This document shows, piece by piece, positions 1,175 to 19,856 of a DNA stretch of 21,933 nucleotides; position 1 is the first letter of the stretch; every line of letters starts with the position of its first letter. The DNA lies in IMG/VR virus record IMGVR_UViG_3300046534_001355; one strand, given 5' to 3'. The notes under the pieces were generated by a model, which made no database searches, was not told where the DNA came from, and saw only the letters and a program-made list of their open reading frames with translations. The translations under genes were made by a program, and so were the position numbers. Source of the stretch: a virus. Taxonomy: Duplodnaviria; Heunggongvirae; Uroviricota; Caudoviricetes.

Positions 1175-1289
1175 CAGAAAACCCTCCGAGTGGTACTTTT
1201 TTTTGCTACTACTAATCGCTTTTTTCGTGGTGGCTGAAATTTAGCCACCAATAGTAGGCACTTGTGATGAATATATTCACGATAAATTG

Positions 1290-1986: not shown

Positions 1987-1996
1987 GGAGAACCGT

Positions 1997-2167: not shown

Positions 2168-2664
2168 CAGTGATGACGCTCAATCTCGTTGAAAAACAGC
2201 CAGCAGCTATGCGCCGGATAATTGGTAAGCATCTGGCCGTCCCTCGCTGGCAGGAGACATGCGATTATTATAATCAGATGATGGAACGCGAACGGCTAAC
2301 GGTTTGCTTCCATGCGCAGTTAAAACAGCGTCACGCAACGATGCGTTTTGAAGAAATGAACGACGTCGAACGTGAACGGCTGGTTTGTGCAATTGATGAA
2401 TTGCGTGGGGCATTCTCAAAACGCCGTCAGGTTGGCGCAAGTGAGTATGCATATATTAGTTTTTTAACAGTCAGTCAGCGTCGTACTTTATTTATGCATG
2501 CCGGATTGACTGAAAAAGAATTCAACCAGCCATACTGGCGAATTAATGAAGAATCATGTTACTGGCGTGATGCTTTATTCCGTGCATTACGTGAATTATT
2601 CAGCCTGTTTGAGTATGCACCGACAATTCTGACGTCGGTAAAACCAGAGCAATATCTGCATTAA
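2164..2664 (+). CDS. B: Replication protein B (166 aa, helicase-loader-like)
   Basis: 166-aa ORF in the P2 B position with identical length; translationally coupled to the upstream ORF. Confidence 0.8.
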   Translation: MTVMTLNLVEKQPAAMRRIIGKHLAVPRWQETCDYYNQMMERERLTVCFHAQLKQRHATMRFEEMNDVERERLVCAIDELRGAFSKRRQVGASEYAYISFLTVSQRRTLFMHAGLTEKEFNQPYWRINEESCYWRDALFRALRELFSLFEYAPTILTSVKPEQYLH

Positions 2665-2727
2665 ATAATTAACCAGAGTTTTTAATGCACTTAATCGTGC
2701 GGGGCTTCTTTTTGCCTGGAGAAAGTC

Positions 2728-2952
2728 ATGCATACAGTTTCTGAAAACAAGTGCGGTAAATACGCATTACTGCTGCAACAGGCCAGAGCCGAAGCACATG
2801 CCGACGCAGCGACACGCTTTTCTTCTCATCTTGACGCCATGATTCGCCATATCACAAAGGCGGAGTTATCCCGCGTGGAGATAGTCGAGCTGCTCAGTCA
2901 GGAGTCGGAAAAATTTCACAATATCGGATTGTCTCGCGGGGAGGTGCTTTGA
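2728..2952 (+). CDS. Hypothetical early-operon protein (P2 orf80 region)
   Basis: 74-aa ORF, co-directional and tightly packed between B and A. Confidence 0.5.
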
Positions 2953-3251
2953 TGTCCTGTTCTCATTCAGTTGTATTACTGAATAACGCCTTAAAAATCG
3001 CCGTTATGAAAAATGGCGATTTGTCTCTTATTCAACTTTGCCTTGATAAAGAAAAACGCGACATAACTGAATCTGTTATCGCGATTTATCAGAATGAATT
3101 AAACCTCCTGTCTGATGTGGTCAATTTACTTGTTAAACGCGCTGTATTCCACAAGCAAATTTCCTCAGTGGATGAACTGACAAAATTAACGACAGAACTT
3201 GCCAGTTATTGCGCTGATGTATCCAGGAAACTTAACGATAAAAGGAGCTGA
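2949..3251 (+). CDS. Hypothetical early-operon protein (P2 orf81 region)
   Basis: 100-aa ORF whose start overlaps the previous stop (ATGA). Confidence 0.5.
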
Positions 3252-3253
3252 TA

Positions 3254-3478
3254 ATGCCGGACAACGTAGATTTTATTCAGGAACAACAGGCTGAATTACT
3301 GGAGCGCCAGATTAACGCGGCAAGGGTAAAACATTGCGGTGCTTCTGCGCTGGTTTGCGAAGAGTGTAACGCGCCAATACCTGCTGCCCGTCGTGCGGCT
3401 TACCCGTCAGCCACGCGTTGTGTTTCCTGTCAGTCAGTCTTTGAAGCAAAAAACAAACATTACCGGAGAACGGCATGA
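3254..3478 (+). CDS. TraR/DksA-type C4 zinc-finger protein
   Basis: 74 aa with CEEC-N17-CVSC (four Cys) near the C-terminus, typical of the phage TraR/DksA family; RBS AAAGGAG upstream. Confidence 0.65.
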   Translation: MPDNVDFIQEQQAELLERQINAARVKHCGASALVCEECNAPIPAARRAAYPSATRCVSCQSVFEAKNKHYRRTA

Positions 3479-3750
3479 GTATTCGTATTGAAATTGGCGA
3501 ACGTTATGTCGTTACCAGTGACAGCTTTCAGTTTATTCTCCACGAGAAAAAGAGAGCGGAAAGCGGTAAAAACGCCGGTCAGGAATGGCTGGCGGTGGTT
3601 GGTTATTACCCGAAATTAAGCCAGCTCGTTTCCGGCCTGATGCATCACGATATTCTTACCGGAAGCGCAAAGTCTTTTGCTGATTTAAACGCGCAGGTTG
3701 AGCAACTCAGCAAGCGTTGTTCAGAGGCTTTTGGCTCATATGGCCGTTAA
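3475..3750 (+). CDS. Hypothetical early-operon protein (P2 orf83 region)
   Basis: 91-aa ORF overlapping the start of A. Confidence 0.5.
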   Translation: MSIRIEIGERYVVTSDSFQFILHEKKRAESGKNAGQEWLAVVGYYPKLSQLVSGLMHHDILTGSAKSFADLNAQVEQLSKRCSEAFGSYGR

Positions 3751-6022
3751 AGCCTCCGGGCGTTTTGTCCCTCCGTCAGCATTTGCCGCAGGCACCGGTA
3801 AGACGTTTACCGGTGCTTATGCATGGAACGCGCCACGCGAGGCCGTCGGGCGCGAAAGACCCCTTACACGTGACGAGATGCGTCAGGTGCAAGGTGTTTT
3901 ATCCACGATTAACCGCCTGCCTTACTTTTTGCGCTCGCTGTTTACTTCACACTATGACTACATCCGGCGCAATAAAAGCCCGGTGCACGGGTTTTATTTC
4001 CTCACATCCACTTTTCAGCGTCGTTTATGGCCGCGCATTGAGCGTGTGAATCAGCGCCATGAAATGAACACCGACGCGTCGTTGCTGTTTCTGGCAGAGC
4101 GTGACCACTATGCGCGCCTGCCGGGAATGAATGACAAGGAGCTGAAAAAGTTTGCCGCCCGTATCTCATCGCAGCTTTTCATGATGTATGAGGAACTCAG
4201 CGATGCCTGGGTGGATGCACATGGCGAAAAAGAATCGCTGTTTACGGATGAGGCGCAGGCTCACCTCTATGGTCATGTTGCTGGCGCTGCACGTGCTTTC
4301 AATATTTCCCCGCTTTACTGGAAAAAATACCGTAAAGGACAGATGACCACGAGGCAGGCATATTCTGCCATTGCCCGTCTGTTTAACGATGAGTGGTGGA
4401 CTCATCAGCTCAAAGGCCAGCGTATGCGCTGGCATGAGGCGTTACTGATTGCTGTCGGGGAGGTCAATAAAGACCGTTCTCCTTATGCCAGTAAACATGC
4501 CATTCGTGATGTGCGTGCACGCCGCCAGGCAAATCTGGAATTTCTTAAATCGTGTGATCTCGAAAACAGGGAAACCGGCGAGCGCATCGACCTTATCAGT
4601 AAGGTGATGGGCAGTATTTCTAATCCTGAAATTCGCCGGATGGAGCTGATGAACACCATTGCCGGTATTGAGCGTTACGCCGCAGCAGAGGGTGATGTGG
4701 GGATGTTTATCACGCTGACCGCGCCGTCAAAGTATCACCCGACACGTCAGGTTGGAAAAGGCGAAAGTAAAACCGTCCAGCTAAATCACGGCTGGAACGA
4801 TGAGGCATTTAATCCAAAGGATGCGCAGCGTTATCTCTGCCGTATCTGGAGCCTGATGCGCACGGCATTCAAGGATAATGATTTACAGGTCTACGGTTTG
4901 CGTGTCGTCGAGCCACATCACGACGGAACGCCGCACTGGCATATGATGCTTTTTTGTAATCCGCGCCAGCGTAACCAGATTATCGAAATCATGCGTCGCT
5001 ATGCGCTCAAAGAGGATGGCGACGAAAGAGGAGCCGCGCGAAACCGTTTTCAGGCAAAACACCTTAATCGGGGCGGTGCTGCGGGGTATATCGCGAAATA
5101 CATCTCAAAAAACATCGACGGCTATGCACTGGATGGTCAGCTCGATAACGATACCGGCAGACCTCTGAAAGATACTGCCGCGGCTGTTACTGCATGGGCG
5201 TCAACGTGGCGCATCCCGCAATTTAAAACGGTTGGTCTGCCGACAATGGGGGCTTACCGTGAACTACGCAAATTGCCTCGCGGCGTCAGCATTGCTGATG
5301 AGTTTGACGAACGCGTCGAGGCTGCACGCGCTGCCGCAGACAGTGGCGATTTTGCGTTGTATATCAGTGCGCAGGGTGGGGCAAATGTTCCGCGCGATTG
5401 CCAGACTGTCAGAGTCGCCCGTAGCCCGTCGGATGAAGTTAACGAGTACGAGGAAGAAGTCGAGAGAGTGGTCGGCATTTACGCGCCGCATCTCGGCGCG
5501 CGTCATATTCATATCACCAGAACGACGGACTGGCGCATTGTGCCGAAAGTTCCGGTCGTGGAGCCTTTGACTTTAAAAAGCGGCATCGCCGCGCCTCGGA
5601 GTCCTGTCAATAACTGTGGAAAGCTCACCGGTGGTGATACTTCGTTATCGGCTCCCACACCGACTGAGCATGCTGCAGCGGTGTTAAATTTTATAGATGA
5701 AGGGATTCTAAGTTGGACCGAGCCAGGCATTATGAAGGTACTTAGAGACTTATTGAGTAATGAACTGAAATGCAGTAATCGTTCACAGCAGAGCTTTACT
5801 CCTTTCAATGGTCGAAGCTACTTTCCTGCCCCATCCGCCCGGTTGACAAGGCAGGAGAGAAAGACTATCCCGAAAATTAAGGTTCTTCTTGCACAAAGTG
5901 ACATTCAGGCTAGTTATTGGGAGCTTGAAGCTCTCGCTCGCGGAGCTGTTTTGGATTTTGGGCATAAGCGTTTTAAATTTGATACCGATATCGACTTTTT
6001 TGACAGACAGCGTGAGTGGTAG
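3740..6022 (+). CDS. A: Replication initiation protein A (rolling-circle nickase), divergent AT-rich 3' end
   Basis: Start taken at MAVKASGRF (ATG 3740), not the track start 3698. HUH-like motif PHWHMMLF and two-tyrosine motif GYIAKYISK seen. The last ~110 codons (from about 5690) are clearly more AT-rich than the rest. Confidence 0.88.
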   Translation: MAVKASGRFVPPSAFAAGTGKTFTGAYAWNAPREAVGRERPLTRDEMRQVQGVLSTINRLPYFLRSLFTSHYDYIRRNKSPVHGFYFLTSTFQRRLWPRIERVNQRHEMNTDASLLFLAERDHYARLPGMNDKELKKFAARISSQLFMMYEELSDAWVDAHGEKESLFTDEAQAHLYGHVAGAARAFNISPLYWKKYRKGQMTTRQAYSAIARLFNDEWWTHQLKGQRMRWHEALLIAVGEVNKDRSPYASKHAIRDVRARRQANLEFLKSCDLENRETGERIDLISKVMGSISNPEIRRMELMNTIAGIERYAAAEGDVGMFITLTAPSKYHPTRQVGKGESKTVQLNHGWNDEAFNPKDAQRYLCRIWSLMRTAFKDNDLQVYGLRVVEPHHDGTPHWHMMLFCNPRQRNQIIEIMRRYALKEDGDERGAARNRFQAKHLNRGGAAGYIAKYISKNIDGYALDGQLDNDTGRPLKDTAAAVTAWASTWRIPQFKTVGLPTMGAYRELRKLPRGVSIADEFDERVEAARAAADSGDFALYISAQGGANVPRDCQTVRVARSPSDEVNEYEEEVERVVGIYAPHLGARHIHITRTTDWRIVPKVPVVEPLTLKSGIAAPRSPVNNCGKLTGGDTSLSAPTPTEHAAAVLNFIDEGILSWTEPGIMKVLRDLLSNELKCSNRSQQSFTPFNGRSYFPAPSARLTRQERKTIPKIKVLLAQSDIQASYWELEALARGAVLDFGHKRFKFDTDIDFFDRQREW

Positions 6023-6110
6023 TTGAAAAAACGGTTGAACGGGGTAACAATATGTTATTGTTGAGGAATTGTTTGTTATGGTTTAATTTTTATACACGGC
6101 AGAAAAGCAT

Positions 6111-7334
6111 ATGAGCATGGTTGAATGGATAAGCCACGAGAAAAAAGATAGCCTGATACTATTTGTACATGGATTAAATGGTGGTTTGGAAACATGGAAC
6201 TTTAATAAAGAAATTTCATTTCCAAAACTATTAGCAGAAGATGAAGATATTAGCAACGTATTTGATATTGCATGTTTCAATTATTTTACTAAATTCACAC
6301 AAACGTATGCTAAAACGTCAGGATTCTTGGCTCGTATTTTCTTTAAGAAAAATAAGTTAGAGAGAAATTTACCAACTGATGAAATAGCTGAGTTATTGTA
6401 TACTGAGATTAGAGTAACACTAAGTGATTACTCTCGAATTATAATAATCGCCCATAGTATGGGGGGGTTAATATCAAAAAATCTAATTCTAAAAAAAGTT
6501 GAGCATGAGGAACAATCTAATATAATTGGATTCATTTCGTTAGCAGTCCCTCACTTTGGTGCTAAATTAGCGAATATAACTTCAATGGTATCTTCAAATG
6601 CTCAGTTAGTAGATCTTGGATTGTTAAGTGAAGCGACTGATACATTGAATAGGCGCTGGATAAATTGTAGCAAAAAACTTCCTATCACTAGATATGTTTA
6701 TGGATCTCATGACACTATAGTCGATAAAAAAAGCGCATTACCGATGGATAGTGAACGACATAACTCAATTGCAGTTAATGAAGGGCATAGCTCAATTTGC
6801 AAGCCCGAAAATAGCTCGTCTACAGTGTTTGTTGCGGTAAAGCAATTTATTCAGCAGATAAATTTAGAAGCACCCAAGAAGATTTGCGTTGAGCGTTTTT
6901 CTGATGATAAACAATATGATAATGAGTATTTCGTCTTAAAAATGATTGTCGCAGATATACATCAGGATATCGCTCTGCATGCAAAGGAATATTATTATAA
7001 TGCTGAGCTTGCGAGAAATATTTTTACGAGTGATTACGATAGAAAACAACTTGGTCATTTGTATTCTAAAATAAGGGAGATTTACCAGGAAGAGTATGAG
7101 CAATACATTGCAAATTCAATTTCCCCAGATAAATTTATTGCTGCTGTTCATAGACGAATAACCCAGGAGGATAAGTCGTCGTTAGATTCTCTTATAAAAA
7201 GTTTGGAAACGATACATAAGAAAGGAATGTTGCATCAACTGGCTAACAAAAATGACAGGGATATTGTCTGGTCATCTGAAACCAGCGTAGAAACTTTGGA
7301 GCAATTACGGCGAGGTAATCATGAAGAAAAATAA
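6111..7334 (+). CDS. Lipase-like alpha/beta hydrolase fused to a C-terminal helical domain; candidate defence effector (LmuA-like position)
   Basis: FVHGLNGG oxyanion-hole-like motif; nucleophile elbow AHSMGG (Ser116, nt 6456-6458), identical to the Bacillus lipase A pentapeptide; later GSHDTIVD and EGHSSI supply candidate Asp/His. AT-rich; first gene of a 3-gene overlapping operon. Confidence 0.7.
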   Translation: MSMVEWISHEKKDSLILFVHGLNGGLETWNFNKEISFPKLLAEDEDISNVFDIACFNYFTKFTQTYAKTSGFLARIFFKKNKLERNLPTDEIAELLYTEIRVTLSDYSRIIIIAHSMGGLISKNLILKKVEHEEQSNIIGFISLAVPHFGAKLANITSMVSSNAQLVDLGLLSEATDTLNRRWINCSKKLPITRYVYGSHDTIVDKKSALPMDSERHNSIAVNEGHSSICKPENSSSTVFVAVKQFIQQINLEAPKKICVERFSDDKQYDNEYFVLKMIVADIHQDIALHAKEYYYNAELARNIFTSDYDRKQLGHLYSKIREIYQEEYEQYIANSISPDKFIAAVHRRITQEDKSSLDSLIKSLETIHKKGMLHQLANKNDRDIVWSSETSVETLEQLRRGNHEEK

Positions 7335-7833
7335 CTTGCCGTATATACCTCTTGATGAAGAGTATAGTTTGAATTTTGCTATGCTTGCCATTGCTATATC
7401 TATATTATCTCATAGCAAAAAAGGAGTGTTGTCATTAGATATTAATAAAATACAAATTTTTATGTATCTGATAAAAAATCCATCAAAAATTGATTGTGCT
7501 CTTACAGTTTCGGGGAAAAAGCCTGCTTGTGTCGAGTCCCAGTTAACTTATACAATAAAGAGTTTTTCATCAAATGTAGATATCTTATTCGACAATTCCA
7601 AAGTGAAATATCTTATAAAAATTATGTCATTGCGGGGATTGCTCTCAGCTGAGAAAAAAAATAATGAGAGTGTTAAATTATTTTTATCTGAAAAAGGTAA
7701 GGAATTTGCTAGCTCATTGACTGATGGATATTTTAAAGAAATAAAACGACTAGCCGAAGCATTGTTACCGCTACAAGCATTGCCTACCTCTAAGTTAAAC
7801 TCTGTTATAAACAAAGTCTTCAAGGAGAAATGA
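7321..7833 (+). CDS. Small middle-gene protein of the operon (LmuC-like position)
   Basis: 170-aa ORF overlapping the upstream stop by 14 nt and the downstream start by 4 nt (ATGA), implying translational coupling; no recognisable motifs. Confidence 0.55.
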   Translation: MKKNNLPYIPLDEEYSLNFAMLAIAISILSHSKKGVLSLDINKIQIFMYLIKNPSKIDCALTVSGKKPACVESQLTYTIKSFSSNVDILFDNSKVKYLIKIMSLRGLLSAEKKNNESVKLFLSEKGKEFASSLTDGYFKEIKRLAEALLPLQALPTSKLNSVINKVFKEK

Positions 7834-9800
7834 TGAAATCATATCTCAATATCAATAGTTTGATTCTTGTTGGCGTTCGTAAAAACTACGTCACTACTTT
7901 TTATAAAGGTCTCAATGTTATCTACGGAGACTCTGACACAGGTAAGTCAAGTATTCTGGAGTTTATTAATTATCTTTTAGGTGCTAGTTCTATAGATTTA
8001 GCAGATGAAATAAAAACATCAGTAAACTATGCTGCTCTTGAAGTAGTGATCAATGATACTGTATTCACAATCGTAAGAGATATCTATGATCATAAAAAAT
8101 CAATAGAAGTTTATCGTTGTAAGTTTGATGATTTACATAAACACTTTCCGAAAAAATACGCTCCTAATTATAGCCCCTTATCAAATGTTGATGGCGTTTT
8201 TTCGGAGTTTTTACTTGATAGTCTTAATTTTCCAAAAATTGAAATTAAGGTGTCTCCTTCTAAAGCACATTCACAGATGCGCAGGTTAAGCTTTAGAAAT
8301 ATATATAAATTTGTTTATGTAAGTCAGGATGATATTGGTAGTAAATCATTCTTACGATTGGAGGATTGGTCCCGTTACGCATTTACGAAAGAAGTTTTTA
8401 AATACATGTTCAATGTGTTGGATGAAAGCATCGCCAGACTCCAAGGTGAAATATCTGCAAAAAGTAGTTTAGTAACGGAACTAAATAAGAAGTATCAGAT
8501 AATATCTGAATTTCTTCGCGATACAGACTATGAAACAATTGAATCAATTGATGATGAGATTAATAGGATAGATCTTATTTTAGAAGAACTTGTTGCAGGT
8601 TTGTCTGCTCTCGATAAAAATATGAAAGCGGATTCCATGCAGTATACAGAATTGAAAGATGCCCACAATTTTATTTCGCTTAAATACAAGGAGTGCATAT
8701 TAAATATTAGCACGCTTGAGGATAAGATTGATAAATATTCGCGGTTAAAAAATGACTATGATAATGATATTGAAAAACTCAAAGCGATTAAAACAGCAAA
8801 TTCTCGCATTGGTGTATTGGATAAGGAAGTATTTTCCTGTCCGATCTGTGATAGCCACATTAAAATAGATGATTCCGATTTTCCATTTGAAATTTCATCA
8901 GAAAAAGATCTTAATGAAGAGTTGAATTCACTTAGTCGACGTAGACGAAATATTAATGACATGATCTCAGAAATGTCATTTAAATTAAAAAAAGAATCTG
9001 GTTATAAAAAAGAATTAGATGAACAACTTGACGAGTTGAGAGAGTTAATTGACGAAGAAAGCCAGTCAATGATTACACCATTCTTGACTCAGAGAGATTT
9101 TTATATTAAAGAGATATCAAAAAACGAGAAGGTTAGGGAGCAGTTAGTAAAAGATTTGAAGGTTAGAAACCAGCAAGAGGAACTGCTTGAAAAGCATCAG
9201 GTACTGATAAAAGATATTGAAACATTAACTGAACGCTTGGATGCGTTAAAGAAAAACGCACCTAGTATGGAAGGCATTTTACAAGGTTTAGGTGATAGAT
9301 TTAGTCAGTATTTGAAGGGTATTAATATCAAAAACAGAACGGGGATAAAAATCTCTGAAAGATATTACACCCCTGTTATAAGAGGAAAGGAATATTTTAA
9401 AATAACGTCCGGAGGTTTGAGAACTATTTCTTCTATTGGGTATCTTTTGTCTATTCTTGATTATGCAATAGACCATAATGTTAACCATCCTTTACTTTTG
9501 ATATTTGATACGGTTGGTAAATATTTAGGGAAACAGACCAAGGAAAAATACTCAAAAGAAACTCTTGCAGTCGAGGATGACCTTGAGGGGATGTCAGACC
9601 CGATGAAGTATCAAAATATTTATGAGCAACTATTGAATACAGTTCAAAAAGCAGAAAGAAAAAATGTTCCGTGCCAGATTATATTAGTTGATAATGATTT
9701 GCCTAATTCGTTTTCTACTGGTGAACTTTCGAATATTATCGCTCATTATAGCTCGGTTGGTGAGGATGGTTTGCCTTTAGGTTTAATTGATGACCTTTAA
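7830..9800 (+). CDS. SMC/Rad50-like ABC ATPase with coiled-coil and CxxC hook (LmuB-like)
   Basis: Walker A GDSDTGKSS (res 33-40); long charged heptad-rich middle; CPIC at res 337-340, the midpoint; ABC signature-like TSGGLRT (~res 526); Walker B-like LLLIFDT (~res 555-561). Confidence 0.75.
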   Translation: MMKSYLNINSLILVGVRKNYVTTFYKGLNVIYGDSDTGKSSILEFINYLLGASSIDLADEIKTSVNYAALEVVINDTVFTIVRDIYDHKKSIEVYRCKFDDLHKHFPKKYAPNYSPLSNVDGVFSEFLLDSLNFPKIEIKVSPSKAHSQMRRLSFRNIYKFVYVSQDDIGSKSFLRLEDWSRYAFTKEVFKYMFNVLDESIARLQGEISAKSSLVTELNKKYQIISEFLRDTDYETIESIDDEINRIDLILEELVAGLSALDKNMKADSMQYTELKDAHNFISLKYKECILNISTLEDKIDKYSRLKNDYDNDIEKLKAIKTANSRIGVLDKEVFSCPICDSHIKIDDSDFPFEISSEKDLNEELNSLSRRRRNINDMISEMSFKLKKESGYKKELDEQLDELRELIDEESQSMITPFLTQRDFYIKEISKNEKVREQLVKDLKVRNQQEELLEKHQVLIKDIETLTERLDALKKNAPSMEGILQGLGDRFSQYLKGINIKNRTGIKISERYYTPVIRGKEYFKITSGGLRTISSIGYLLSILDYAIDHNVNHPLLLIFDTVGKYLGKQTKEKYSKETLAVEDDLEGMSDPMKYQNIYEQLLNTVQKAERKNVPCQIILVDNDLPNSFSTGELSNIIAHYSSVGEDGLPLGLIDDL

Positions 9801-9928
9801 TACTATACATGCATTTTTTTGAATTAGATTGCATGTGGATAATGAGTCTATTTAGTGAAGGGAAGGTTTTGTGTGACGTGACTTTCGATAAAATTCAACC
9901 GCATTAAAACCGCCCCATGAAGCGGGCG

Positions 9929-9947
9929 GGCGAGGCGGGGAAAGCAC
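9929..9947. other. cos: cos site (19-nt P2 cohesive-end sequence GGCGAGGCGGGGAAAGCAC)
   Basis: Exact occurrence of the 19-nt P2 cohesive-end sequence, between the cargo operon and Q, as in the P2 prophage map; flanked by the GT-rich packaging region. Confidence 0.75.
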
Positions 9948-10088
9948 TGCGCGCTGGCGGTGGTGCTGATTTTATTTTTTAGCGTCTCAGCGCGTCGTGA
10001 TGGCGTTTAGATTGTGCGCCGGGGCGTTGGTGTGTCTGCGGGGTGTTTTGTGCGGTGGTGAGCGTGTGAGGGCGTGATGACGGGGTGT

Positions 10089-10110
10089 AAAAAAGCCGCC
10101 CGCAGGCGGC
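10089..10110 (-). terminator. Rho-independent terminator downstream of Q
   Basis: Stem GCCGCC / GGCGGC with loop CGCA; on the minus-strand transcript the hairpin is followed by UUUUUU. Lies 6 bp past the Q stop. Confidence 0.6.
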
Positions 10111-10115
10111 GATGT

Positions 10116-11090
10116 TCAGCCGTTGTCAGTGTCCAGTGAGTAGTTTTTAAAGCGGATGACCTCCTGACCGAGCCAGCCGTTTATCTCACGGATCCTGTCC
10201 TGTAACGGGATAAGCTCATTGCGGACAAAGACCTTTGCCACTTTCTCAATATCACCCAGCGACCCGACGTTCTCCGGCTTGCCGCCCATCAACTGAAAGG
10301 GGATGCGGTGCGCGTCCAGCAGGTCTGCGGCACTGGCTTTTTTGATATTAAAAAAATCGTCCTTCGTCGCCACTTCACTGAGCGGGATAATTTTAATGCC
10401 GTCGGCTTTTCCCTGTGGGGCATAGAGAAACAGGTTTTTAAAGTTGTTGCGGCCTTTCGACTTCACCATGTTTTCGCGAAGCATTTCGATATCGTTGCGA
10501 TCCTGCACGGCATCAGTGACGTACATGATGTATCCGGCATGTGCGCCGTTTTCGTAATACTTGCGGCGGAACAGCGTGGCCGACTCATTCAGCCAGGCAG
10601 AGTTAAGGGCGCTGAGATATTCCGGCAGGCCGTACAGCTCCTGATTAATATCGGGCTCCAGCAGGTGAAACACGGAACCGGGCGCGAAGGCTGTCGGTTC
10701 GTTGAAGGACGGCACCCACCAGTAAACATCCTCCTCCACGCCACGGCGGGTATATTTTGCCGGTGAGGTTTCCAGTCTGATGACCTTACCGGTGGTGCTG
10801 TAACGCTTTTCCAGAAACGCATTACCGAACACCAGAAAATCCAGCACAAAGCGGCTGAAATCCTGCTGGGAAAGTCGCCGAAAATCGCCAGTGTGCATCA
10901 GTTCGGTCTGTCGGAAGAAACCCGGAAAGACGGTAAGAAAATTGATTATCCGGCGCGTCCTCTGCTCGGCTTTACCGGTGAGGATGTGCAGATGATTGAA
11001 GAGATTATCCTGGCTCACCTTGAGCGTTAGTTTTATCCAGGCAGAGGCTGATGCGCAATTAAACATTGAGCGGCCATGCTGGTCGCTCAA
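10116..11090 (-). pseudogene. Q: Portal protein Q, apparently 5'-truncated remnant
   Basis: Minus-strand ORF with C-terminus next to cos as in P2. Only 324 codons (P2 Q about 344), begins with TTG inside a 12-bp-arm hairpin, and the upstream partner P (terminase) is absent. Confidence 0.6.
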
Positions 11091-11095
11091 TGTTT
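11061..11095. repeat. Inverted repeat (12-bp arms AAACATTGAGCG / CGCTCAATGTTT, 11-nt loop) at the Q-side deletion junction
   Basis: Perfect 12-bp arms read directly from the sequence; overlaps the putative Q start and lies just 3' of the membrane-protein gene stop. Confidence 0.7.
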
Positions 11096-11101
11096 AGAGG
11101 C

Positions 11102-11887
11102 TTATGAGTGATTTTTATTTGATGCTTTGTATTCTACAACCTTCTTATTGGCGTAAAGGAATTTTGTATATGACAGGAATATAACCAGACCTGAAATGAA
11201 ATAGATGAGGGATATTATTAATAATGCTTTTTTTTGGCTGTTATTATCTTTAATTTCCTGACTTAACCATTCCGAGTCCTCCTCGTTTAGCTGTAAGAGC
11301 TTATTGCAGGCGATCTCAGGAAGTGTGTCTTTTATAAATATGTTTCGTAGCCTCTTGCAATCGGCAAGGCTATAAGTTTTATTGAATTCAACTGTTTTAT
11401 TGTTGAAGGATAAAAGAACTTTGTCACTATAAACATAGTACATCATATTTTTATATGGTATGCCTATGGCATCTCTTACTATAGCGGATTGTTTGTTGTG
11501 TATATAACATGCGAAGAGAATATAAATAATGCTGGACAGAATTACAATTATTGTTTTAATTATGTGTGGTGGTTTTGTTATGTCACCCCAGAAGCGAGTA
11601 AGAAAAAAATACGATGTTTTTAGTTTTCCATCAATCAGCCCCTGCTGTATCATTCTCACATCTTCGATGCCTGATACATTGATTCCGTTAATTATTTTAA
11701 ATAGTTGAATGTCGCGCCATTTTTTGTCGAGCATTTTTAACTTTCTGTCTGAATACTCAAAATTGAAATGATGTGCAATAAACCTCATAAGATTACTTTT
11801 ACCAAAGGTAATAAATGTTAATGCTATTAATAAAAATAGATACAAAGAGATAAACCACCACGCATTAGTCACATTATCACTGAACAT
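11102..11887 (-). CDS. AT-rich orphan membrane protein (3 predicted TM helices), unknown function
   Basis: 261-aa ORF with hydrophobic segments at about res 10-28, 107-127 and 222-241; GGAG 7-8 nt upstream of ATG; composition unlike the flanking backbone. Confidence 0.6.
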   Translation of the reverse strand: MFSDNVTNAWWFISLYLFLLIALTFITFGKSNLMRFIAHHFNFEYSDRKLKMLDKKWRDIQLFKIINGINVSGIEDVRMIQQGLIDGKLKTSYFFLTRFWGDITKPPHIIKTIIVILSSIIYILFACYIHNKQSAIVRDAIGIPYKNMMYYVYSDKVLLSFNNKTVEFNKTYSLADCKRLRNIFIKDTLPEIACNKLLQLNEEDSEWLSQEIKDNNSQKKALLIISLIYFISGLVIFLSYTKFLYANKKVVEYKASNKNHS

Positions 11888-11970
11888 TACGCTCTCCTCG
11901 AATGTTGTATGGTCGTTCTACAAATGAATCCAGATAGCATAACTTTTATATATTGTGCAATCTCACACGC

Positions 11971-12606
11971 ATGAACACTCTCGCAAATATTCAGGAACTC
12001 GCGCGCGCACTGCGCAACATGATTCGTACCGGCCTTGTCGTCGAAACCAACCTTAAAGCCGGTCGCTGCCGTGTGCAGACCGGTGGCATGTGCACTGACT
12101 GGCTTCAGTGGCTGACCCATCGTGCCGGACGTTCGCGCACATGGTGGGCACCTTCCGTGGGGGAACAGGTGCTGATTCTGGCTGTGGGCGGTGAACTCGA
12201 CACGGCGTTCGTTCTGCCGGGGATTTATTCCGGCGATAACCCCGCGCCGTCTGCGTCGGCGGATGCCCTGCATATCCGTTTCCCTGACGGGGCGGTGATT
12301 GAGTATGAACCCGAAACCAGTGCACTCACGGTAAGCGGAATTAAAACGGCCAGCGTGACGGCTTCTGATTCTGTTACTGCCACGGTGCCGGTGGTCATGG
12401 TGAAAGCATCAACCCGCGTCACCCTGGACACACCGGAGGTGGTTTGCACCAACAGGCTGATTACCGGCACGCTGGAAGTGCAGAAGGGCGGGACGATGCG
12501 CGGCAACATTGAACACACCGGCGGTGAACTCTCATCAAACGGTAAGGTACTGCATACCCATAAACACCCCGGCGACAGCGGCGGCACAACCGGGAGCCCT
12601 CTATGA
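11971..12606 (+). CDS. V: Baseplate spike protein V (211 aa)
   Basis: Start at MNTLANIQELARALRNMIRTG (ATG 11971); length and sequence match P2 gpV as I recall it. Confidence 0.9.
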   Translation: MNTLANIQELARALRNMIRTGLVVETNLKAGRCRVQTGGMCTDWLQWLTHRAGRSRTWWAPSVGEQVLILAVGGELDTAFVLPGIYSGDNPAPSASADALHIRFPDGAVIEYEPETSALTVSGIKTASVTASDSVTATVPVVMVKASTRVTLDTPEVVCTNRLITGTLEVQKGGTMRGNIEHTGGELSSNGKVLHTHKHPGDSGGTTGSPL

Positions 12607-12950
12607 CAGCGCGTTATCTCGGAATGAATTGCAGTGATGGCCTGACTGTCACTGACCTTGAGCATATCAGCCAGAGTATCGGCGATATCCTGCGCACACC
12701 GGTCGGCTCGCGGGTGATGCGTCGTGATTACGGCTCGTTGCTGGCGTCAATGATTGACCAGCCGCAGACCCCGGCGCTTGAGTTGCAGATTAAGGTCGCC
12801 TGTTACATGGCGGTGCTGAAATGGGAACCCCGCGTCACCCTGTCATCCGTCACCACTGAGCGCAGTTTTGACGGGCGAATGACGGTCACCTTAACCGGCC
12901 AGCACAACGACACCGGCCAGCCACTTTCGTTAACCATCCCTGTGAGTTGA
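12603..12950 (+). CDS. W: Baseplate protein W (115 aa)
   Basis: 115 aa, overlapping start/stop with V; P2 gpW length and position. Confidence 0.88.
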   Translation: MTARYLGMNCSDGLTVTDLEHISQSIGDILRTPVGSRVMRRDYGSLLASMIDQPQTPALELQIKVACYMAVLKWEPRVTLSSVTTERSFDGRMTVTLTGQHNDTGQPLSLTIPVS

Positions 12951-12954
12951 AACC

Positions 12955-13863
12955 ATGCCGATTATCGACCTGAACCAGCTACCCGCACCGGATGTGGTCG
13001 AGGAGCTGGACTTTGAAACCATTCTCGCCGAACGCAAGGCGACACTGATTTCCCTTTACCCGGAAGCCCAGCAGGAGGCGGTCGCCCGTACCCTGACGCT
13101 GGAATCCGAGCCTCTCGTCAAATTGCTGGAGGAAAATGCTTATCGTGAGCTTATCTGGCGTCAGCGTGTGAATGAGGCCGCACGGGCGGTGATGCTGGCC
13201 TGTGCCGCGGGTAATGACCTTGATGTGATTGGTGCCAATTACAACACCACGCGTCTGACTATCACCCCGGCAGATAATTCGACTATCCCGCCGACACCGG
13301 CAGTGATGGAATCTGATACCGATTATCGTCTGCGTATTCAGCAGGCGTTTGAAGGTTTAAGCGTCGCCGGGTCGGTGGGTGCCTATCAGTATCATGGTCG
13401 CAGTGCTGACGGGCGTGTCGCGGATATCTCTGTCACCAGTCCGTCTCCGGCCTGCGTCACCATCTCTGTGCTGTCACGTGAGAATAACGGTGTCGCATCC
13501 GAAGACCTGCTGGCGGTGGTGCGTAACGCCCTGAATGGCGAGGACGTCAGACCGGTGGCCGACCGCGTGACCGTGCAGTCTGCCGCCATTGTTGAATACC
13601 AGATAAACGCCACGCTTTACCTTTACCCTGGTCCCGAAAGCGAACCCATCCGCGCTGCTGCCGTGAAAAAACTGGAAGCGTACATCACGGCACAGCACCG
13701 GCTGGGGCGCGACATCCGTCTGTCTGCCATTTATGCCGCTTTGCATGTGGAAGGCGTGCAGCGTGTCGAACTGGCTGCACCGCTGGCCGATATCGTGCTT
13801 AACAGCACGCAGGCGTCTTTCTGTACTGAATACCGCGTCGTGACCGGAGGCTCGGATGAGTGA
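12955..13863 (+). CDS. J: Baseplate protein J (302 aa)
   Basis: 302 aa, P2 gpJ length and position. Confidence 0.88.
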   Translation: MPIIDLNQLPAPDVVEELDFETILAERKATLISLYPEAQQEAVARTLTLESEPLVKLLEENAYRELIWRQRVNEAARAVMLACAAGNDLDVIGANYNTTRLTITPADNSTIPPTPAVMESDTDYRLRIQQAFEGLSVAGSVGAYQYHGRSADGRVADISVTSPSPACVTISVLSRENNGVASEDLLAVVRNALNGEDVRPVADRVTVQSAAIVEYQINATLYLYPGPESEPIRAAAVKKLEAYITAQHRLGRDIRLSAIYAALHVEGVQRVELAAPLADIVLNSTQASFCTEYRVVTGGSDE

Positions 13864-14386
13864 TTCGCGACTGCTGCCGACCGGCTCATCACCGCTTGAG
13901 GTCGCCGCCGCAAAAGCCTGTGCGGAAATTGAAAAAACACCGGTCAGTATTCGTGAGCTGTGGAACCCGGACACCTGCCCGGCAAATCTGCTGCCGTGGC
14001 TGGCGTGGGCGTTTTCGGTCGACAGATGGGATGAAAAGTGGCCGGAAGCGACAAAACGCGCCGTTATCCGCGATGCGTATTTCATCCACTGTCATAAAGG
14101 CACTATAGGTGCAATCCGGCGTGTGGTGGAGCCGCTAGGCTATCTAATTAACGTAAAGGAATGGTGGGAGACAAACGACCCGCCCGGAACCTTCCGCCTT
14201 GATATCGGCGTACTGGAAAGCGGCATCACGGAGGAGATGTATCTGGAAATGGAACGGCTGATTGCCGATGCCAAACCCGCAAGTCGCCACCTTATCGGTC
14301 TGAACATTATCCAGGACATTCCCGGCTATCTGTATACAGGCGGTGTGGTCTGTGATGGTGATGTTATTACTGTTTATCCCGGATAA
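13856..14386 (+). CDS. I: Baseplate protein I (176 aa)
   Basis: 176 aa, overlaps the J stop; P2 gpI length and position. Confidence 0.88.
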   Translation: MSDSRLLPTGSSPLEVAAAKACAEIEKTPVSIRELWNPDTCPANLLPWLAWAFSVDRWDEKWPEATKRAVIRDAYFIHCHKGTIGAIRRVVEPLGYLINVKEWWETNDPPGTFRLDIGVLESGITEEMYLEMERLIADAKPASRHLIGLNIIQDIPGYLYTGGVVCDGDVITVYPG

Positions 14387-14396
14387 GTGAGAAACA

Positions 14397-17255
14397 ATGA
14401 GCACGAAATTTAAAACCGTTATCACTACTGCCGGAGCCGCAAAGCTGGCAGCCGCCACTGTCCCCGGCGGGAAAAAAGTAACCCTGTCTGCAATGGCCGT
14501 GGGTGACGGTAATGGCAAATTGCCGGTGCCGGATGCTGGTCAGACGAAACTGGTGCATGAGGTCTGGCGTCACGCCCTGAATAAAGTCAGCGTGGATAAC
14601 AAGAATAAAAACTATATCGTGGCTGAACTGGTTGTACCGCCAGAAGTGGGCGGCTTCTGGATGCGTGAACTTGGTCTGTATGACGATGCCGGAACACTGA
14701 TTGCGGTCGCTAACATGGTAGAAAGCTATAAGCCTGAACTGGCTGAAGGCTCCGGGCGTGCGCAGACCTGCCGCATGGTTATTATTGTCAGTAACGTGGC
14801 GTCTGTTGAGCTGAGTATTGATGCCAGCACGGTGATGGCGACGCAGGATTACGTCGATAAAGCCATATCCAGTTTTCATCGTACTGTCATTGATGATGTG
14901 GTTCTTCAGCATAAAGTTGTCCACGATATTGACTACGCCGGGATTTTTGACGGTGCGGATAATATGAGTCAGGGGTTCTGTATCTGTGATACGCCGCAGG
15001 GAACCAGAATGTTTCTGCATCAGCCTGTATCGGGTGGCGTAAGGATTGTTGAAACGACATTTAACCCTGACGGAGAAAACGAAAACCCGACGGTCATTTC
15101 GTTTTCTCCCGTTTTCGCTGATATTGGTCACCAGAGTATCGGGGCTGTATGTGAAGACGGTCGCGTGATGCTGTATACCCCGACCGCTGACGGCAAGGGT
15201 GTGAATATCATCAACTGGAATGGGGCTGACACCAGTCTGACAGATGTCACCCGTACGGAGATTTTCACCTCTGACTTTTTTACCGGGGATGAAATTATAA
15301 CGGTGGCATTGTCGGTAGACGGAAGCCTGTTGATTGTTCAGTCAAGTAATGAAGCCGTCCATCTTCATTACAACAGGGATGACCGCCGCACAGTTTATGT
15401 TTTCGATCGCGCTTCTCTGACGTTTAAACACCGGATTTATCTGTCCACCCAGTCAATGGTGTCGCAGGCATTTCAGGGGATGGCCAGCGATGGTCATTAT
15501 CTGTTTGCTTATTACGGTTATACAGGCGTATTTCTGACTCACCGCATTGTTGTATATAACCTGTCAACGGGCGAAGTTGTCAGACAGTTCAATGTGGATG
15601 GCGTTCGTGCCAGGTATGGCCGCCAGAAAATGCTGGGGAATGCAGAGCTGGGGTATCCCGTTTTGCAGGAAGCCGAAGGGCTGGCTCTTCATAACGGAAA
15701 ACTGTATCTGCTCGATATGGATTTCTGGTGTCAGACAGCAGATGTGGTTTCTTTTGAGGGGGCATACTTTGCAGCACGTGCAACAAATTTTTCTGGCCGT
15801 TCCCCGGTGAATCCATCTTACTGCACGCCTACAGCATATGGAACGGCGGCTGCAACGAAATATGATGCCACGAAGTCTTATACGTGTGGCGTGGCGACAA
15901 AACGCAGCAAAGCTGTGGTTTCCGTGGAGGCTTACGACGGCACAGGCTATCTGGTGGACTCCGGCGTGGCGTTTCCTGACAGCCATGCTAGCCTTTTTCT
16001 GAGTCCCAATGCTGTAAATATTGCCCTGTCACCCAATGAAGACTTCCAGGTGGCAGCCTATGAGCAGAATCTGCGCTCGCATCGCCCGTTATTTGAGGTC
16101 AGAAAGGAGGCTCCGGATACAGACACTTCTGCTGCTGTTTTTCGTTTGTACGGGGATGCGTTCCGAACCGGAGAATACACAGGCCGCTTCGTTCAGTGGA
16201 AACACCGACTGAACACCGTGCACGATTGTCTGGAAATACGCGCTGACGTGGATTTGTTGAGCGGTGGCGGGATTAACCTTTACTCAATGAACGATACTCA
16301 GTCGGCGGGGCGCACAAGGCTTTATTGTACCGATGGCAGTGAGACCTGGTCTGTATTATTGAGTCCGGTCTCGCCGGCATTTCATCCCGACCAGGACAAG
16401 GCAATGAATCTGGGGTCATCGCCAAATCGCTGGAATGTGGCATACCTGCAGGGCGTGAATATTAAATCGGATGACGAAACCCAGAAGCGCATGGCCATCA
16501 GCACCACGCTGAAGGCGGGAGCTTTCCAGGTATCAACAGCCGGGAATCTGGGTATTTATGACGATTCTGCTGACGCTTATGTAATTGCAGCCCGTAGTGA
16601 CGGCACTGCATTCATGCAGATGGATACAGATATTAACGGTGCATTCCGGCCATCGGTTAACAATACCAGCGACCTGGGTGCGCCCAACAAAGCGTTCCGG
16701 AGCGTGTATCTCTGCAACTCGCCGACCGTTGTGTCGGATGCGACGTTAAAGGATACACCGCGCGATGCGACGGCAGCCGAAAACGCGGCATTTGCAGAAA
16801 TAGCACGGCTTCCGGGCGTGTGGCGCTGGTTACAGAGAATTGAGGAGGAGGGCGAGGACGCGCGTCTGCACGCCGGGCCGACAGTCCAGGCCGCGATAGC
16901 GGTGATGGAGAAACACGGTCTGGACTGGCGGAAATACAGCGCATTTTGTCTGGATTCGTGGGAAGCGGAGGAGGCACAGTACGAAGATATACCGGAAGAG
17001 TATGAAGATATTCCGGTTCAGCCAGCGATTTATTCGGATGAAGGGGAGCTGTTGAGCGGGACAACTCGTGTGCTTACCCGACAGGCGGAAAGGGTTCTTG
17101 TTCGCCCTGCAACCGAAGCAGGAAGCCGTTATCGCTTCCGGAAAGAGGAGCTTCTCTGGTGGTGTCTACGTGCTGTTGTCAGCCAGGTGGATTTGTTAAT
17201 GGAACGCTTTGTTGACTTAAATCGTCGTTTGATGAAGTTGGAGACTTCAGAATAA
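14397..17255 (+). CDS. H: Tail fibre protein H, extended (952 aa) with divergent distal part and possible C-terminal intramolecular chaperone
   Basis: N-terminus MSTKFKTVITTAGAAKLAAA typical of P2-type H; much longer than P2 H (about 669 aa); C-terminal region contains VVSDATLKD resembling the S-D-x-R/L-K autoproteolysis motif; no separate G gene follows. Confidence 0.8.
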   Translation: MSTKFKTVITTAGAAKLAAATVPGGKKVTLSAMAVGDGNGKLPVPDAGQTKLVHEVWRHALNKVSVDNKNKNYIVAELVVPPEVGGFWMRELGLYDDAGTLIAVANMVESYKPELAEGSGRAQTCRMVIIVSNVASVELSIDASTVMATQDYVDKAISSFHRTVIDDVVLQHKVVHDIDYAGIFDGADNMSQGFCICDTPQGTRMFLHQPVSGGVRIVETTFNPDGENENPTVISFSPVFADIGHQSIGAVCEDGRVMLYTPTADGKGVNIINWNGADTSLTDVTRTEIFTSDFFTGDEIITVALSVDGSLLIVQSSNEAVHLHYNRDDRRTVYVFDRASLTFKHRIYLSTQSMVSQAFQGMASDGHYLFAYYGYTGVFLTHRIVVYNLSTGEVVRQFNVDGVRARYGRQKMLGNAELGYPVLQEAEGLALHNGKLYLLDMDFWCQTADVVSFEGAYFAARATNFSGRSPVNPSYCTPTAYGTAAATKYDATKSYTCGVATKRSKAVVSVEAYDGTGYLVDSGVAFPDSHASLFLSPNAVNIALSPNEDFQVAAYEQNLRSHRPLFEVRKEAPDTDTSAAVFRLYGDAFRTGEYTGRFVQWKHRLNTVHDCLEIRADVDLLSGGGINLYSMNDTQSAGRTRLYCTDGSETWSVLLSPVSPAFHPDQDKAMNLGSSPNRWNVAYLQGVNIKSDDETQKRMAISTTLKAGAFQVSTAGNLGIYDDSADAYVIAARSDGTAFMQMDTDINGAFRPSVNNTSDLGAPNKAFRSVYLCNSPTVVSDATLKDTPRDATAAENAAFAEIARLPGVWRWLQRIEEEGEDARLHAGPTVQAAIAVMEKHGLDWRKYSAFCLDSWEAEEAQYEDIPEEYEDIPVQPAIYSDEGELLSGTTRVLTRQAERVLVRPATEAGSRYRFRKEELLWWCLRAVVSQVDLLMERFVDLNRRLMKLETSE

Positions 17256-17466: not shown

Positions 17467-18814
<1,348 letters not shown>

Positions 18815-19092
18815 TATGCAACCTCTAACGTTAATAATGTTTATGAATATTCAGAATGCTATCTCATAACATGAAGCATTATATCTGAACATTGTGACAT
18901 GATTTAATGAAGTCATCAGCACATCATGCTGCAATGCATTGCAGTATAACTAACACGAGGGATTGTTTGCATGGTGATAGTTTTGTTGGTGATAAAATCA
19001 GCATAATTAAATATGTTGGCGTACATTTTGAACATTTTTAAGCAAAGCAAATTATAAGTATAAAAATAGTTAATGTGAAGTTGTACTCATGT

Positions 19093-19122
19093 AAAAAGCC
19101 CCGCATTCTCTCGAAGGCGGGG
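19093..19122 (-). terminator. Putative rho-independent terminator (minus-strand transcript)
   Basis: Stem CCCCGC / GCGGGG with 12-nt loop; on the minus-strand RNA the hairpin is followed by CUUUUU. Confidence 0.4.
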
Positions 19123-19211
19123 AAGATTTGAAAATTAATGGTACAAATTGACGATTTCATATTCTATTCTGTATTAGAATAAAAGTGAATATAATTATTT
19201 ATTTTAGGTGA

Positions 19212-19243: not shown

Positions 19244-19856
19244 ATAAAACGCGGAATTGATTAAGATCTGTATAATTTAATTTTCTGATTCTATCATGCA
19301 TATCATTCACAGTGAAGTTGGTAATTTAGTAAAACTAGTGATAATGCCACTCGGTTTGATAACAAGAGAAACCACAGCGTGGTTTCGTCGAACAGTTTAT
19401 GAAGGATATTCCCCCCAAATATACACTCGCTTTGTGCTGTAGCAGCGCAGATGCTGGTTGCTATTCTTACCGGGAACTGGGCTTACAAGGCAATAGTAGT
19501 GTGACATTCTTCATCGCGCACGTGCATATCCTGGCTGAAAATCGATGGATAGAAAATATCCGCAAAGGGAAGCGGAGCAGCATACCGTGGTGGGGGCACA
19601 TGTATGGGGTGTTGGAAGTCTGATGGATTTCTTTGTACCAGACAGCTTGTATTTTCATCTTTTCTTTGTTTCTTTGCAGGTAATTATGAGTAGCAACAAA
19701 TCCTGAATGGCTGGGTATACCGCAATAAATAGAGGCGGGCAAGTTGCCCACTTTTTCTTTATCTGTTGTTTCATCCACTGCCCAGCCAGGTCAAATAGCG
19801 TCTCATGCTTCGCACAACAGAAAATAGTTGCACCCATTAACCACGGAGTTAAACGG

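Follow-up and report, generated by a model that had tools for sequence, protein, structure and literature searches.

How did the portal gene Q of a P2-like element come to lie close to the baseplate gene V, with an AT-rich gene and an inverted repeat between them? We addressed this question in a 21,933-nucleotide stretch of viral DNA (IMG/VR record IMGVR_UViG_3300046534_001355), referred to here at its full length as the window. A preliminary description made from the sequence alone had proposed that the entire block of genes between Q and V was deleted and replaced by the AT-rich gene. We conclude with high confidence that the window carries a defective prophage of the E. coli B lineage with two deletions, Q-S and FII-D, that nothing was inserted at the Q-S deletion, and that the AT-rich gene, orf30, is native.

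The window carries the P2-like prophage of the E. coli B lineage

Sequence comparison identifies the window as a known element, the defective P2-like (Peduovirus) prophage carried by REL606 and its relatives in the E. coli B lineage; in REL606 it is integrated between yegR and yegQ. Positions 9800-12700 match REL606, E. coli B, ATCC 11303 and further B-lineage genomes with 100% identity, and the REL606 prophage (NC_012967, 2.10-2.12 Mb) is the same element, with at least 99.7% identity across the whole window. Relative to REL606, the window carries 22 more CTGG units (18542-18660), lacks 46 bp at 18307 and differs at a few single bases, indicating that it comes from a different B-lineage strain. 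Seven blocks are colinear with P2 at 92-98% nucleotide identity (blastn), and tblastn with P2 proteins agrees with this assignment. The same protein searches find the essential morphogenesis and lysis set incomplete; judged by its genes, the E. coli B element is a defective remnant and no viable phage.

The Q and S pseudogenes are already annotated in RefSeq; the RefSeq pseudogene calls in REL606 (Q, S, FII and D) match the breakpoints mapped here. The REL606 and BL21 genome papers reportedly describe the defective P2-related prophage of the B strain, and no detailed account of the remnant turned up among the open-access papers searched. The P2 Hy dis immunity region presumably derives from this prophage as well. 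Its C protein is 65% identical to P2 C (tblastn), indicating that the element is heteroimmune. This identity, the sole computed support for the link to P2 Hy dis, is in line with the 43-63% range that PMC1904268 gives for the P2, P2 Hy dis and WPhi repressors.

A plain deletion joins Q to S

9929-9947, plus strand: cos site (P2 cohesive end)
10095-10110, minus strand: tQ, P-operon terminator downstream of Q
10116-10874, minus strand: Q', pseudogene, 3' part of the portal gene Q (codons 93-344 and stop)
10869-10874, no strand: deletion junction 1, P2 945 joined to P2 9206
10869-11030, plus strand: 'S, pseudogene, final 53 codons and stop of the tail-completion gene S

Alignment to a complete P2-like genome, which the preliminary description had suggested as a check, maps the breakpoints to P2 945 and 9206. 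In blastn against P2 (AF063097), window 9929-10874 corresponds to P2 1-945 and window 10869-14858 to P2 9206-13195, with zero unaligned bases between the two blocks flanking the Q/S scar. Absent from the window is P2 946-9205, a loss of 8,260 bp rather than the 9 kb or so first estimated. With it went Q codons 1-92, P, O, N, M, L, X, Y, K, lysA, lysB, lysC, R and S codons 1-97, as well as the divergent late promoters pP and pO. Blastn and tblastn detect no trace of the genes from P through R in this list anywhere in the window, and none of the missing structural genes lies elsewhere in it. The proposed loss of the block between Q and V is thereby borne out for P, O, N, M, L, X, the lysis genes and R, whereas S was only partly removed. 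From S codon 98 the P2 alignment runs unbroken via orf30 into H, indicating a plain deletion with no insertion.

On the Q side, the two ends of linear P2, cosR and cosL, both align at the cos site, where their matches overlap: window 9901-9947 corresponds to P2 33547-33593 (blastn), and cosL and cosR are annotated in P2 at 1-19 and 33575-33593. tQ is a terminator-like hairpin, GCCGCCTGCGGGCGGC, followed by TTTTTT, and corresponds to the P2 tQ annotation at 160-181. Q is 5'-truncated, as had been described, and its ORF is not full length: gpQ 93-344 is all that is left, and residues 93-343, at 10874-10122, are identical to P2 at 251 of 251 aligned positions (tblastn). Q' matches the portal family phrog_68 over profile positions 91-343 of 344 and is labelled 'phage portal protein, incomplete, missing N-terminus' in RefSeq; it has no start of its own, and the P-operon promoter is gone. 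On the other side, contrary to the preliminary description, the AT-rich gene does not come straight after Q': the 162-bp 'S fragment lies between them. It encodes gpS residues 98-150 (identical to P2 at 53 of 54 aligned positions, with the stop codon counted), matches phrog_26 (tail completion/Neck1) and is labelled 'phage virion morphogenesis protein, incomplete, missing N-terminus' in RefSeq. The 324-aa ORF at 10116-11090 arises simply because the Q' frame runs on into the antisense of 'S.

Three-way comparisons of junction 1 with P2, with P24A7b and with the sister prophage of E. coli H1827/12, where both flanks are still present, resolve it to the base. The Q side reads ...CTGGGAAAG/CCA and the S side ...GCGGGAAG/TCGCCG (slash, breakpoint), and the two blastn segments overlap at a GGGAA(A)G microhomology. 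These features suggest a single illegitimate recombination event across 3-6 bp of this microhomology, joining a point in Q (P2 945) to a point in S (P2 9206). Such an event would have removed 8,260 bp, from the 5' end of Q through the 5' end of S, with no DNA gained. Everything to the right of the scar (the S 3' end, tO, orf30, the Ogr-dependent promoter pV and V-W-J-I-H) is colinear with intact P2. Because strict microhomology is just 3 bp (AAG), reaching 6 of 7 bases if one A slips, it points to this mechanism only weakly. The B deletion fully encloses the H1827/12 deletion (P2 1139-8060), and it could be a second event nested over an earlier, smaller one of that kind.

The AT-rich gene is orf30, native to P2

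11060-11096, no strand: inverted repeat, P2 tO, between convergent S and orf30 (identical to P2 9397-9433)
11102-11887, minus strand: orf30, intact P2 accessory gene (786 bp, 261 aa, 32% GC, three predicted transmembrane helices)
11902-11929, plus strand: retained Ogr/activator binding site of the late promoter pV (P2 10239-10266, offset 1663)
11971-12606, plus strand: V, intact baseplate spike gene

A 0.8-kb AT-rich gene for a predicted membrane protein does precede V, as first described; what fails is the claim that it replaced the missing block. By position and similarity this gene is orf30, native P2 cargo and no footprint of the deletion event. It lies between S and V, on the opposite strand, in P2 (9439-10224), P24A7b (9437-10222) and four other prophages. 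Its product aligns with P2 Orf30 at the same length and without gaps (84% amino-acid identity) and is 99.6% identical to the P24A7b homologue at the same position. [quoted passage not shown]

Of 5426 complete E. coli genomes, 464 (~9%) carry orf30. Against P2 its dN/dS is 0.42, compared with 0.02-0.15 for the flanking genes, indicating that it evolves more quickly than its neighbours yet is under constraint. The product matches the functionally unassigned family phrog_2407 over positions 1-261 of 261 (E 1.8e-143) and nothing else in PHROGs; a Pfam search gave nothing above the family cut-off, just sub-threshold DUF6535, and PADLOC gave no match. Homologues form 5 clusters among 5.8 billion proteins, all unnamed hypothetical proteins, and occur just in P2-like elements of enterobacteria. 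An AlphaFold2 model built from six aligned sequences (pLDDT 74, pTM 0.53) had no Foldseek match in PDB or BFVD at E <= 0.001, with a query-normalised TM-score (TMq) of at most 0.2 for the top-ranked entries; we judged the best hits, claudin/TARP-like membrane helices with TM-scores of ~0.15, to be meaningless. The PADLOC, Pfam and fold searches do not place Orf30 among known anti-phage defence proteins, and neither orf30 nor its locus is mentioned by Rousset et al. 2022 (PMC9122126). A tentative idea, to which we give rather little weight, is that orf30 is an unrecognised host-beneficial gene, for example for a membrane superinfection-exclusion or abortive-infection protein, and that its intact survival in several independently decaying prophages, that of laboratory strain B among them, reflects selection rather than chance. 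Its restriction to these elements, its frequency among E. coli genomes, its dN/dS and its place in a variable locus speak for this idea. We single it out as an uncharacterised gene at one of the variable loci of P2, a classic model phage.

A second deletion truncates the tail genes

21348-21360, no strand: deletion junction 2, FII' joined to 'D (P2 19156-23462 removed)

At junction 2, blastn aligns window 19733-21360 with P2 17524-19155 and window 21348-21933 with P2 23463-24048, and the alignment contains an imperfect 13-bp microhomology. Gone with P2 19156-23462 are the 3' end of FII, E, E', T, U and the 5' part of D. In tblastn with all P2 proteins, FII is represented just by residues 1-101 (of 172) and D just by 225-387, and E, T, U and G are not found in the window. 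This second deletion, similar to the first, took the C-terminus of the tail tube, E/E', U, the tape measure T and the N-terminus of D. Baseplate and tail fibre genes had been described as kept; this holds for V, W, J, I and H, but of FII and D just fragments are left, and E, E', T, U and G are missing.

With all head genes between Q and V gone, the element would be unable to build capsids, as the preliminary description had stated. The head, lysis and tail gene losses together predict no heads, DNA packaging, cell lysis or tails, and particle production appears, from gene content, to be lost. What is kept comprises int, the heteroimmune C repressor, cox, B, A, cos, the Lamassu defence operon, orf30 and part of the baseplate/fibre module. 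The P2-like element of E. coli B strains (the REL606 long-term evolution lineage and its relatives) can be described as doubly deleted and is predicted to make no particles and cause no lysis; the importance of this is mostly limited to correct annotation.

Ordinary decay and alternative readings

The head-block loss in the B lineage is ordinary prophage decay. Independent head-block deletions occur in other P2-like prophages, at P2 1139-8060, 1048-7484, 1458-8941 and 1503-2089 plus 2435-8945. Roughly 2,170 E. coli genomes contain P2-like Q/V DNA. At least five independent P2-like deletions all hit the P/O promoter region and capsid genes, and all five keep the TO-hotspot cargo, Q-proximal DNA and orf30. 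This bias would also suit a selected domestication, in which losing the lysis, capsid and terminase genes disarmed a lethal element and host-beneficial cargo was kept, an explanation that agrees with ours on anatomy and differs just on why the deletion persisted. The cargo in question would be the heteroimmune repressor, the Lamassu operon, whose genes are intact in the window, the glycosyltransferase and orf30, which is intact in four of five lineages with a dN/dS below 1. We consider selection of this kind possible but doubtful: the second deletion and the nesting relative to H1827/12 have the look of unselective erosion, TB06052 carries a frameshift in orf30, and the kept V-W-J-I-H has no obvious use lacking tube and tape measure. 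Moreover, the bias is expected regardless, because prophages keeping lysis genes are purged on induction.

Far less probable is that an incoming AT-rich cassette replaced the head, terminase and lysis block, with the inverted repeat as the Q-side recombination junction.

11060-11096, no strand: inverted repeat, P2 tO, between convergent S and orf30 (identical to P2 9397-9433)

orf30 is strongly AT-rich (32% GC against 51-59% in the flanks) and adjoins the remnant. With a citation of Nilsson and Haggard-Ljungquist, PMC3091744 counts its locus among three variable loci of P2-like phages, which often hold genes absent from P2 and whose content is predicted to be horizontally acquired; tin/old and Z/fun are the other two. 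In addition, only 21 phage records carry orf30, against 73 with a gpV at 90% identity or more, indicating that orf30 was acquired at some time in P2 history. However, P2 and P24A7b, both intact, also carry orf30 and this hairpin, in each case flanked by a full S and a full V, and four other independently deleted prophages have orf30 in the same place, beside a complete or near-complete S. Together with the continuous P2 alignment from S codon 98, the layouts of P2 and P24A7b refute a replacement, and the true junction lies ~190 bp left of the hairpin rather than at it.

The repeat itself is real and stronger than the perfect 12-bp arms first reported at 11061-11095: its arms, at 11060-11076 and 11080-11096, are 17 nt long and 94% complementary. 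Its RNA fold reaches -29.4 kcal/mol on the plus strand (z = -6.4 vs shuffles) and -22.9 on the minus strand (z -5.3). It is base-for-base that of P2, whose annotation labels 9397-9433 'putative rho-independent terminator for O operon', and the 71-base spacer between S and orf30 differs from P2 at 1 of 71 positions, outside the repeat. The T-run is just TGTTT, inside the 3' arm, and a consensus terminator scan made no call there. The repeat is that of P2 tO, a putative and probably bidirectional terminator, and we rejected it as a recombination or junction element.

More improbable still is a tailocin-like domesticated tail device, a headless contractile particle. The element does keep V, W, J, I, H, FI, ogr and the regions of the pV and pF promoters. 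Yet its tube gene FII stops after residue 101 of 172, S and D are incomplete, and tblastn finds no E, E', T, U, X or R and no holin, endolysin or spanin; on this gene content we rejected the tailocin reading. An assembly or sequencing artefact at junction 1 can practically be dismissed, as we found no point in its support and the identical junction occurs in 11 independently assembled complete B-lineage genomes (11 of the 5426 complete E. coli genomes).

Comparison with P2, P24A7b and H1827/12

P2 (AF063097 / NC_001895) is colinear with the window at 92-98% over attP-int-C, cox-B-A, cos-Q, S-tO-orf30-pV-V-W-J-I-H(N-terminus), pF-FI-FII and D-ogr, and shares the position of orf30, the tO hairpin and the pV activator site. 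In contrast to P2, the window lacks P2 946-9205 and 19156-23462, carries the Lamassu operon in place of the tin/old region and a glycosyltransferase region in place of Z/fun, and has a different fibre with an intramolecular chaperone where P2 has the H C-terminus and G. The intact Peduovirus P24A7b (LR595887) is 99% identical from the S 3' end via orf30 to the H N-terminus; it differs in having the full head, lysis and tail gene set and other immunity and TO-region cargo.

A further comparison is with the sister prophage of E. coli H1827/12 (NZ_CP013031), which occupies the same yegR-yegQ site, is 99.99% identical over 10.9 kb and shares the Lamassu cargo, orf30 and V. Its head-block deletion (P2 1139-8060, Q' to 'lysB) is smaller and nested inside the B deletion, whereas its tail deletion (P2 11397-23484, J' to 'D) is larger and encloses the B one; the larger head-block deletion is in B and the larger tail deletion in H1827/12. 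Whether the events were independent or nested and successive, four deletions are needed. With breakpoints resolved to the base and nested deletions between sisters, the pair illustrates how a prophage erodes stepwise at almost no sequence divergence.

Identity of the prophage and its map on P2

Over positions 9800-12700 the window has 100% identity with E. coli B strains, among them REL606, B, ATCC 11303 and AS19, and over its full length it matches REL606 at an identity of at least 99.7%, the differences being an expanded tetranucleotide repeat, a deletion of 46 bp and a few single-base changes. The window is therefore the P2-like prophage resident in the B lineage. In REL606 the element occupies the yegR-yegQ interval, with a P2-type integrase at one end and ogrK at the other. 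RefSeq already annotates it together with its pseudogenes, and E. coli B has long been known to carry a defective prophage related to P2. Using blastn of the window against the complete P2 genome (AF063097) and the P2 annotation, we found seven colinear blocks, which define two internal deletions, P2 946-9205 (8,260 bp) and P2 19156-23462 (4,307 bp).

Blocks colinear with P2 by blastn (window; P2; content)
55-1419; 24356-25720; attP core, int, part of C
1733-5703; 26027-29997; cox to A
9901-9947; 33547-33593; cosR
9929-10874; 1-945; cosL, tQ (terminator downstream of Q), 3' part of Q
10869-14858; 9206-13195; 3' end of S, tO (O-operon terminator), orf30, pV (late promoter of V), V, W, J, I, 5' part of H
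19733-21360; 17524-19155; pF, FI, 5' part of FII
21348-21933; 23463-24048; 3' part of D, start of ogr

The 3' end of A departs from P2 past P2 29997 (window 5703-6022), and orf91 is absent.

Gene content

The preliminary description held that the head, terminase and lysis block had been lost from a defective prophage, and both points stand: P2 946-9205 is missing by blastn, tblastn agrees, and the capsid, terminase and lysis genes are gone. When all P2 proteins were searched against the window by tblastn, there was no match for P, O, N, M, L, X, Y, K, LysA, LysB, LysC and R, nor for G, Fun, E, T, U, Tin and Old, and only partial matches were obtained for Q (residues 93-343), S (92-150), FII (1-101), D (225-387) and H (1-163). 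The same searches covered the missing genes elsewhere in the element and a full-length Q, and found neither.

The head functions removed are the portal N-terminus, both terminase subunits, the scaffold, the capsid and the head-completion genes; the lysis functions are the holin, the endolysin and the LysA/B/C accessories. Tail genes X and R and the divergent pP/pO promoters went with them, while the second deletion takes the C-terminus of the tube protein, E/E', the tape measure T, U and the N-terminus of D. Because the two deletions remove the genes for these functions, the element is predicted to build neither heads nor tails and to be incapable of DNA packaging and cell lysis. A tailocin reading is rejected on the same gene content. 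What is left comprises int, the C repressor, cox, B, A (including the ori region), cos, V-W-J-I, a chimeric H, FI and ogr, in addition to orf30, a Lamassu operon at the TO hotspot and a glycosyltransferase region at the Z hotspot.

Immunity, cargo and fibre regions

Repressor C (ORF 1290-1661, minus strand; true CDS about 1293-1589) shares only 65% identity with P2 C, and blastn leaves the C-cox switch region (1420-1732) unaligned to P2; the prophage is therefore heteroimmune to P2. These observations fit, but do not prove, an origin of the P2 Hy dis immunity region in this prophage.

Between A and cos, the P2 tin/old (TO) hotspot holds a three-gene Lamassu-type defence operon (6111-9800, plus strand; GC about 32%) with LmuA (alpha/beta-hydrolase and ABC-3C CTD8; PADLOC E 1e-108), LmuC (MC4; E 3e-52) and LmuB (SMC-like ABC ATPase; E 1e-233). 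The middle gene is annotated as two ORFs in REL606, versus a single 170-aa ORF in H1827/12 and the window.

The tail fibre gene H (14397-17255, plus strand) is chimeric and P2-like in its first 163 residues only; the body beyond them (952 aa) is unrelated to P2 and has a C-terminal Peptidase_S74 intramolecular chaperone domain (residues 780-842). By tblastn of P2 proteins, the window has no gpG assembly gene. The Z/fun hotspot holds a GT2 glycosyltransferase region whose 5' end carries a perfect (CTGG) array of 29.8 units (18542-18660), read as repeated PASQ in ORF 18536-18814. The array is 22 units (88 bp) longer than that of REL606, whose GT2 gene is annotated intact, and looks like a slipped-strand phase-variable contingency locus. 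At 18307, within the glycosyltransferase gene, 46 bp are missing relative to REL606, and in the window the gene is broken into ORFs 17467-18162 and 18249-18539.

The two deletion scars

Base-level three-way alignments place the first scar, between the remnants Q' and 'S, at window 10869-10874. The Q side reads ...CTGCTGGGAAAG up to the breakpoint and CCA(C/T)GG... beyond it, the S side ...ACGGCGGGAAG and then TCGCCGAAAATC..., and the window across the scar ...CTGCTGGGAAAGTCGCCGAAAATC.... The motif common to both sides, GGGAA(A)G, amounts to 3 bp (AAG) by strict identity and to 6/7 bases with one slipped A; no foreign DNA is present at the junction in these alignments. Alignment to P2, to the intact phage P24A7b or to the sister prophage of H1827/12 (99.99% identical) gives the same junction picture, and the H1827/12 prophage retains undeleted sequence on either side of the B scar point. 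The first deletion may have arisen by illegitimate, microhomology-mediated recombination.

At the second scar (21348-21360), the two sides overlap imperfectly over 13 bp (ACxGGxGxAACGG). E, E', T and U are lost, and a single open ORF of 259 aa (21060-21839, plus strand) joins FII codons 1-101 to D codons 225-387.

Features between the first scar and V
10869-11030, plus: 'S, last 53 codons and stop of the tail-completion gene (protein matches)
11060-11096: inverted repeat, tO; 17-nt arms, 94% complementary; stable fold on both strands
11102-11887, minus: orf30 (protein match to P2 Orf30)
11888-11970: orf30-V spacer with the pV activator site, 95% identical to P2
From 11971: V (tblastn)

The 'S remnant, overlooked previously, separates Q from the AT-rich gene that had been described as directly adjoining it. 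A minus-strand ORF happens to be open from 11090 through 'S antisense into Q', which produces the mechanical 324-aa 'Q' ORF. The inverted repeat had been assigned to the Q-side junction; it is instead the native P2 tO, lies some 190 bp away from the scar and has nothing to do with the deletion. Its sequence is that of P2, where 9397-9433 is annotated as a putative rho-independent terminator of the O operon. Since it sits between the convergent stop codons of S and orf30, the hairpin probably terminates both.

orf30

The AT-rich gene, orf30, did not replace the head block but is native to that place, with unchanged position and orientation in P2 (9439-10224) and P24A7b (9437-10222, 99.6% identity); four other E. 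coli prophages that were examined carry it likewise. Its 261-aa product equals P2 Orf30 in length (84% identity), is a full-length match to phrog_2407, a family of unknown function (E 1.8e-143), and has three hydrophobic segments (about residues 6-31, 106-132 and 218-245); GC is 32%.

orf30 is an accessory gene: 21 phage records carry it, against 73 that encode a gpV of 90% identity or more. In WPhi and P22H4, V lies about 850 bp nearer the left end than in P2, which we take to mean that no orf30-sized gene occupies the S-V position, and phage R18C has a different ORF there (PMC6823313). PMC3091744, after Nilsson and Haggard-Ljungquist, counts three variable loci in P2-like phages (orf30 locus, TO-region and Z-region); these commonly hold genes that P2 lacks, and horizontal acquisition is predicted for their content. 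orf30 occurs in 464/5426 complete E. coli genomes and forms only five 90%-identity clusters in a 5.8-billion-protein collection, the most distant (41% identity) from an Enterobacter.

Its dN/dS against P2 is 0.42, which is below 1 but exceeds the values for Q', S, V, W, J and I (0.02-0.15), and no frameshift occurs in the aligned alleles; orf30 is therefore a real gene that evolves fairly fast. Pfam and PADLOC searches, and Foldseek with an AlphaFold2 model, yielded no functional assignment. Given its AT-richness, its place on the opposite strand behind a terminator and the variable cargo locus, our best guess is that the product would be a membrane protein of lysogenic-conversion or exclusion type.

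Distribution and comparison with other deleted prophages

The exact Q'-'S junction is present in 11/5426 complete E. coli genomes; ten other named genomes are labelled B or belong to known laboratory strains of the B lineage (REL606, ATCC 11303, AS19), and one record carries the label 'strain C'. Prophage decay or domestication is generally expected to remove the head and lysis block repeatedly, and P2-like prophages of four other strains have independent head-block deletions.

Head-block deletions in other P2-like prophages (strain; P2 coordinates deleted)
H1827/12; 1139-8060
WCHEC020031; 1048-7484 (match pattern shared by other genomes)
FAHZZU6014; 1458-8941
TB06052; 1503-2089 and 2435-8945

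WCHEC020031, FAHZZU6014 and TB06052 all keep orf30 between S and V, frameshifted in TB06052 only; WCHEC020031 also has a truncated V, joined to H.

The H1827/12 prophage (NZ_CP013031; 2362-17365 of its extracted locus) occupies the yegR-yegQ site, as in B, and differs by one mismatch in 10.9 kb (99.99% identity). Its head deletion (Q'-'lysB) is nested within that of B, whereas its tail deletion (11397-23484, J'-'D) encloses that of B. As the two prophages are near-identical yet oppositely nested in their deletions, several deletions must have built up within negligible sequence divergence.
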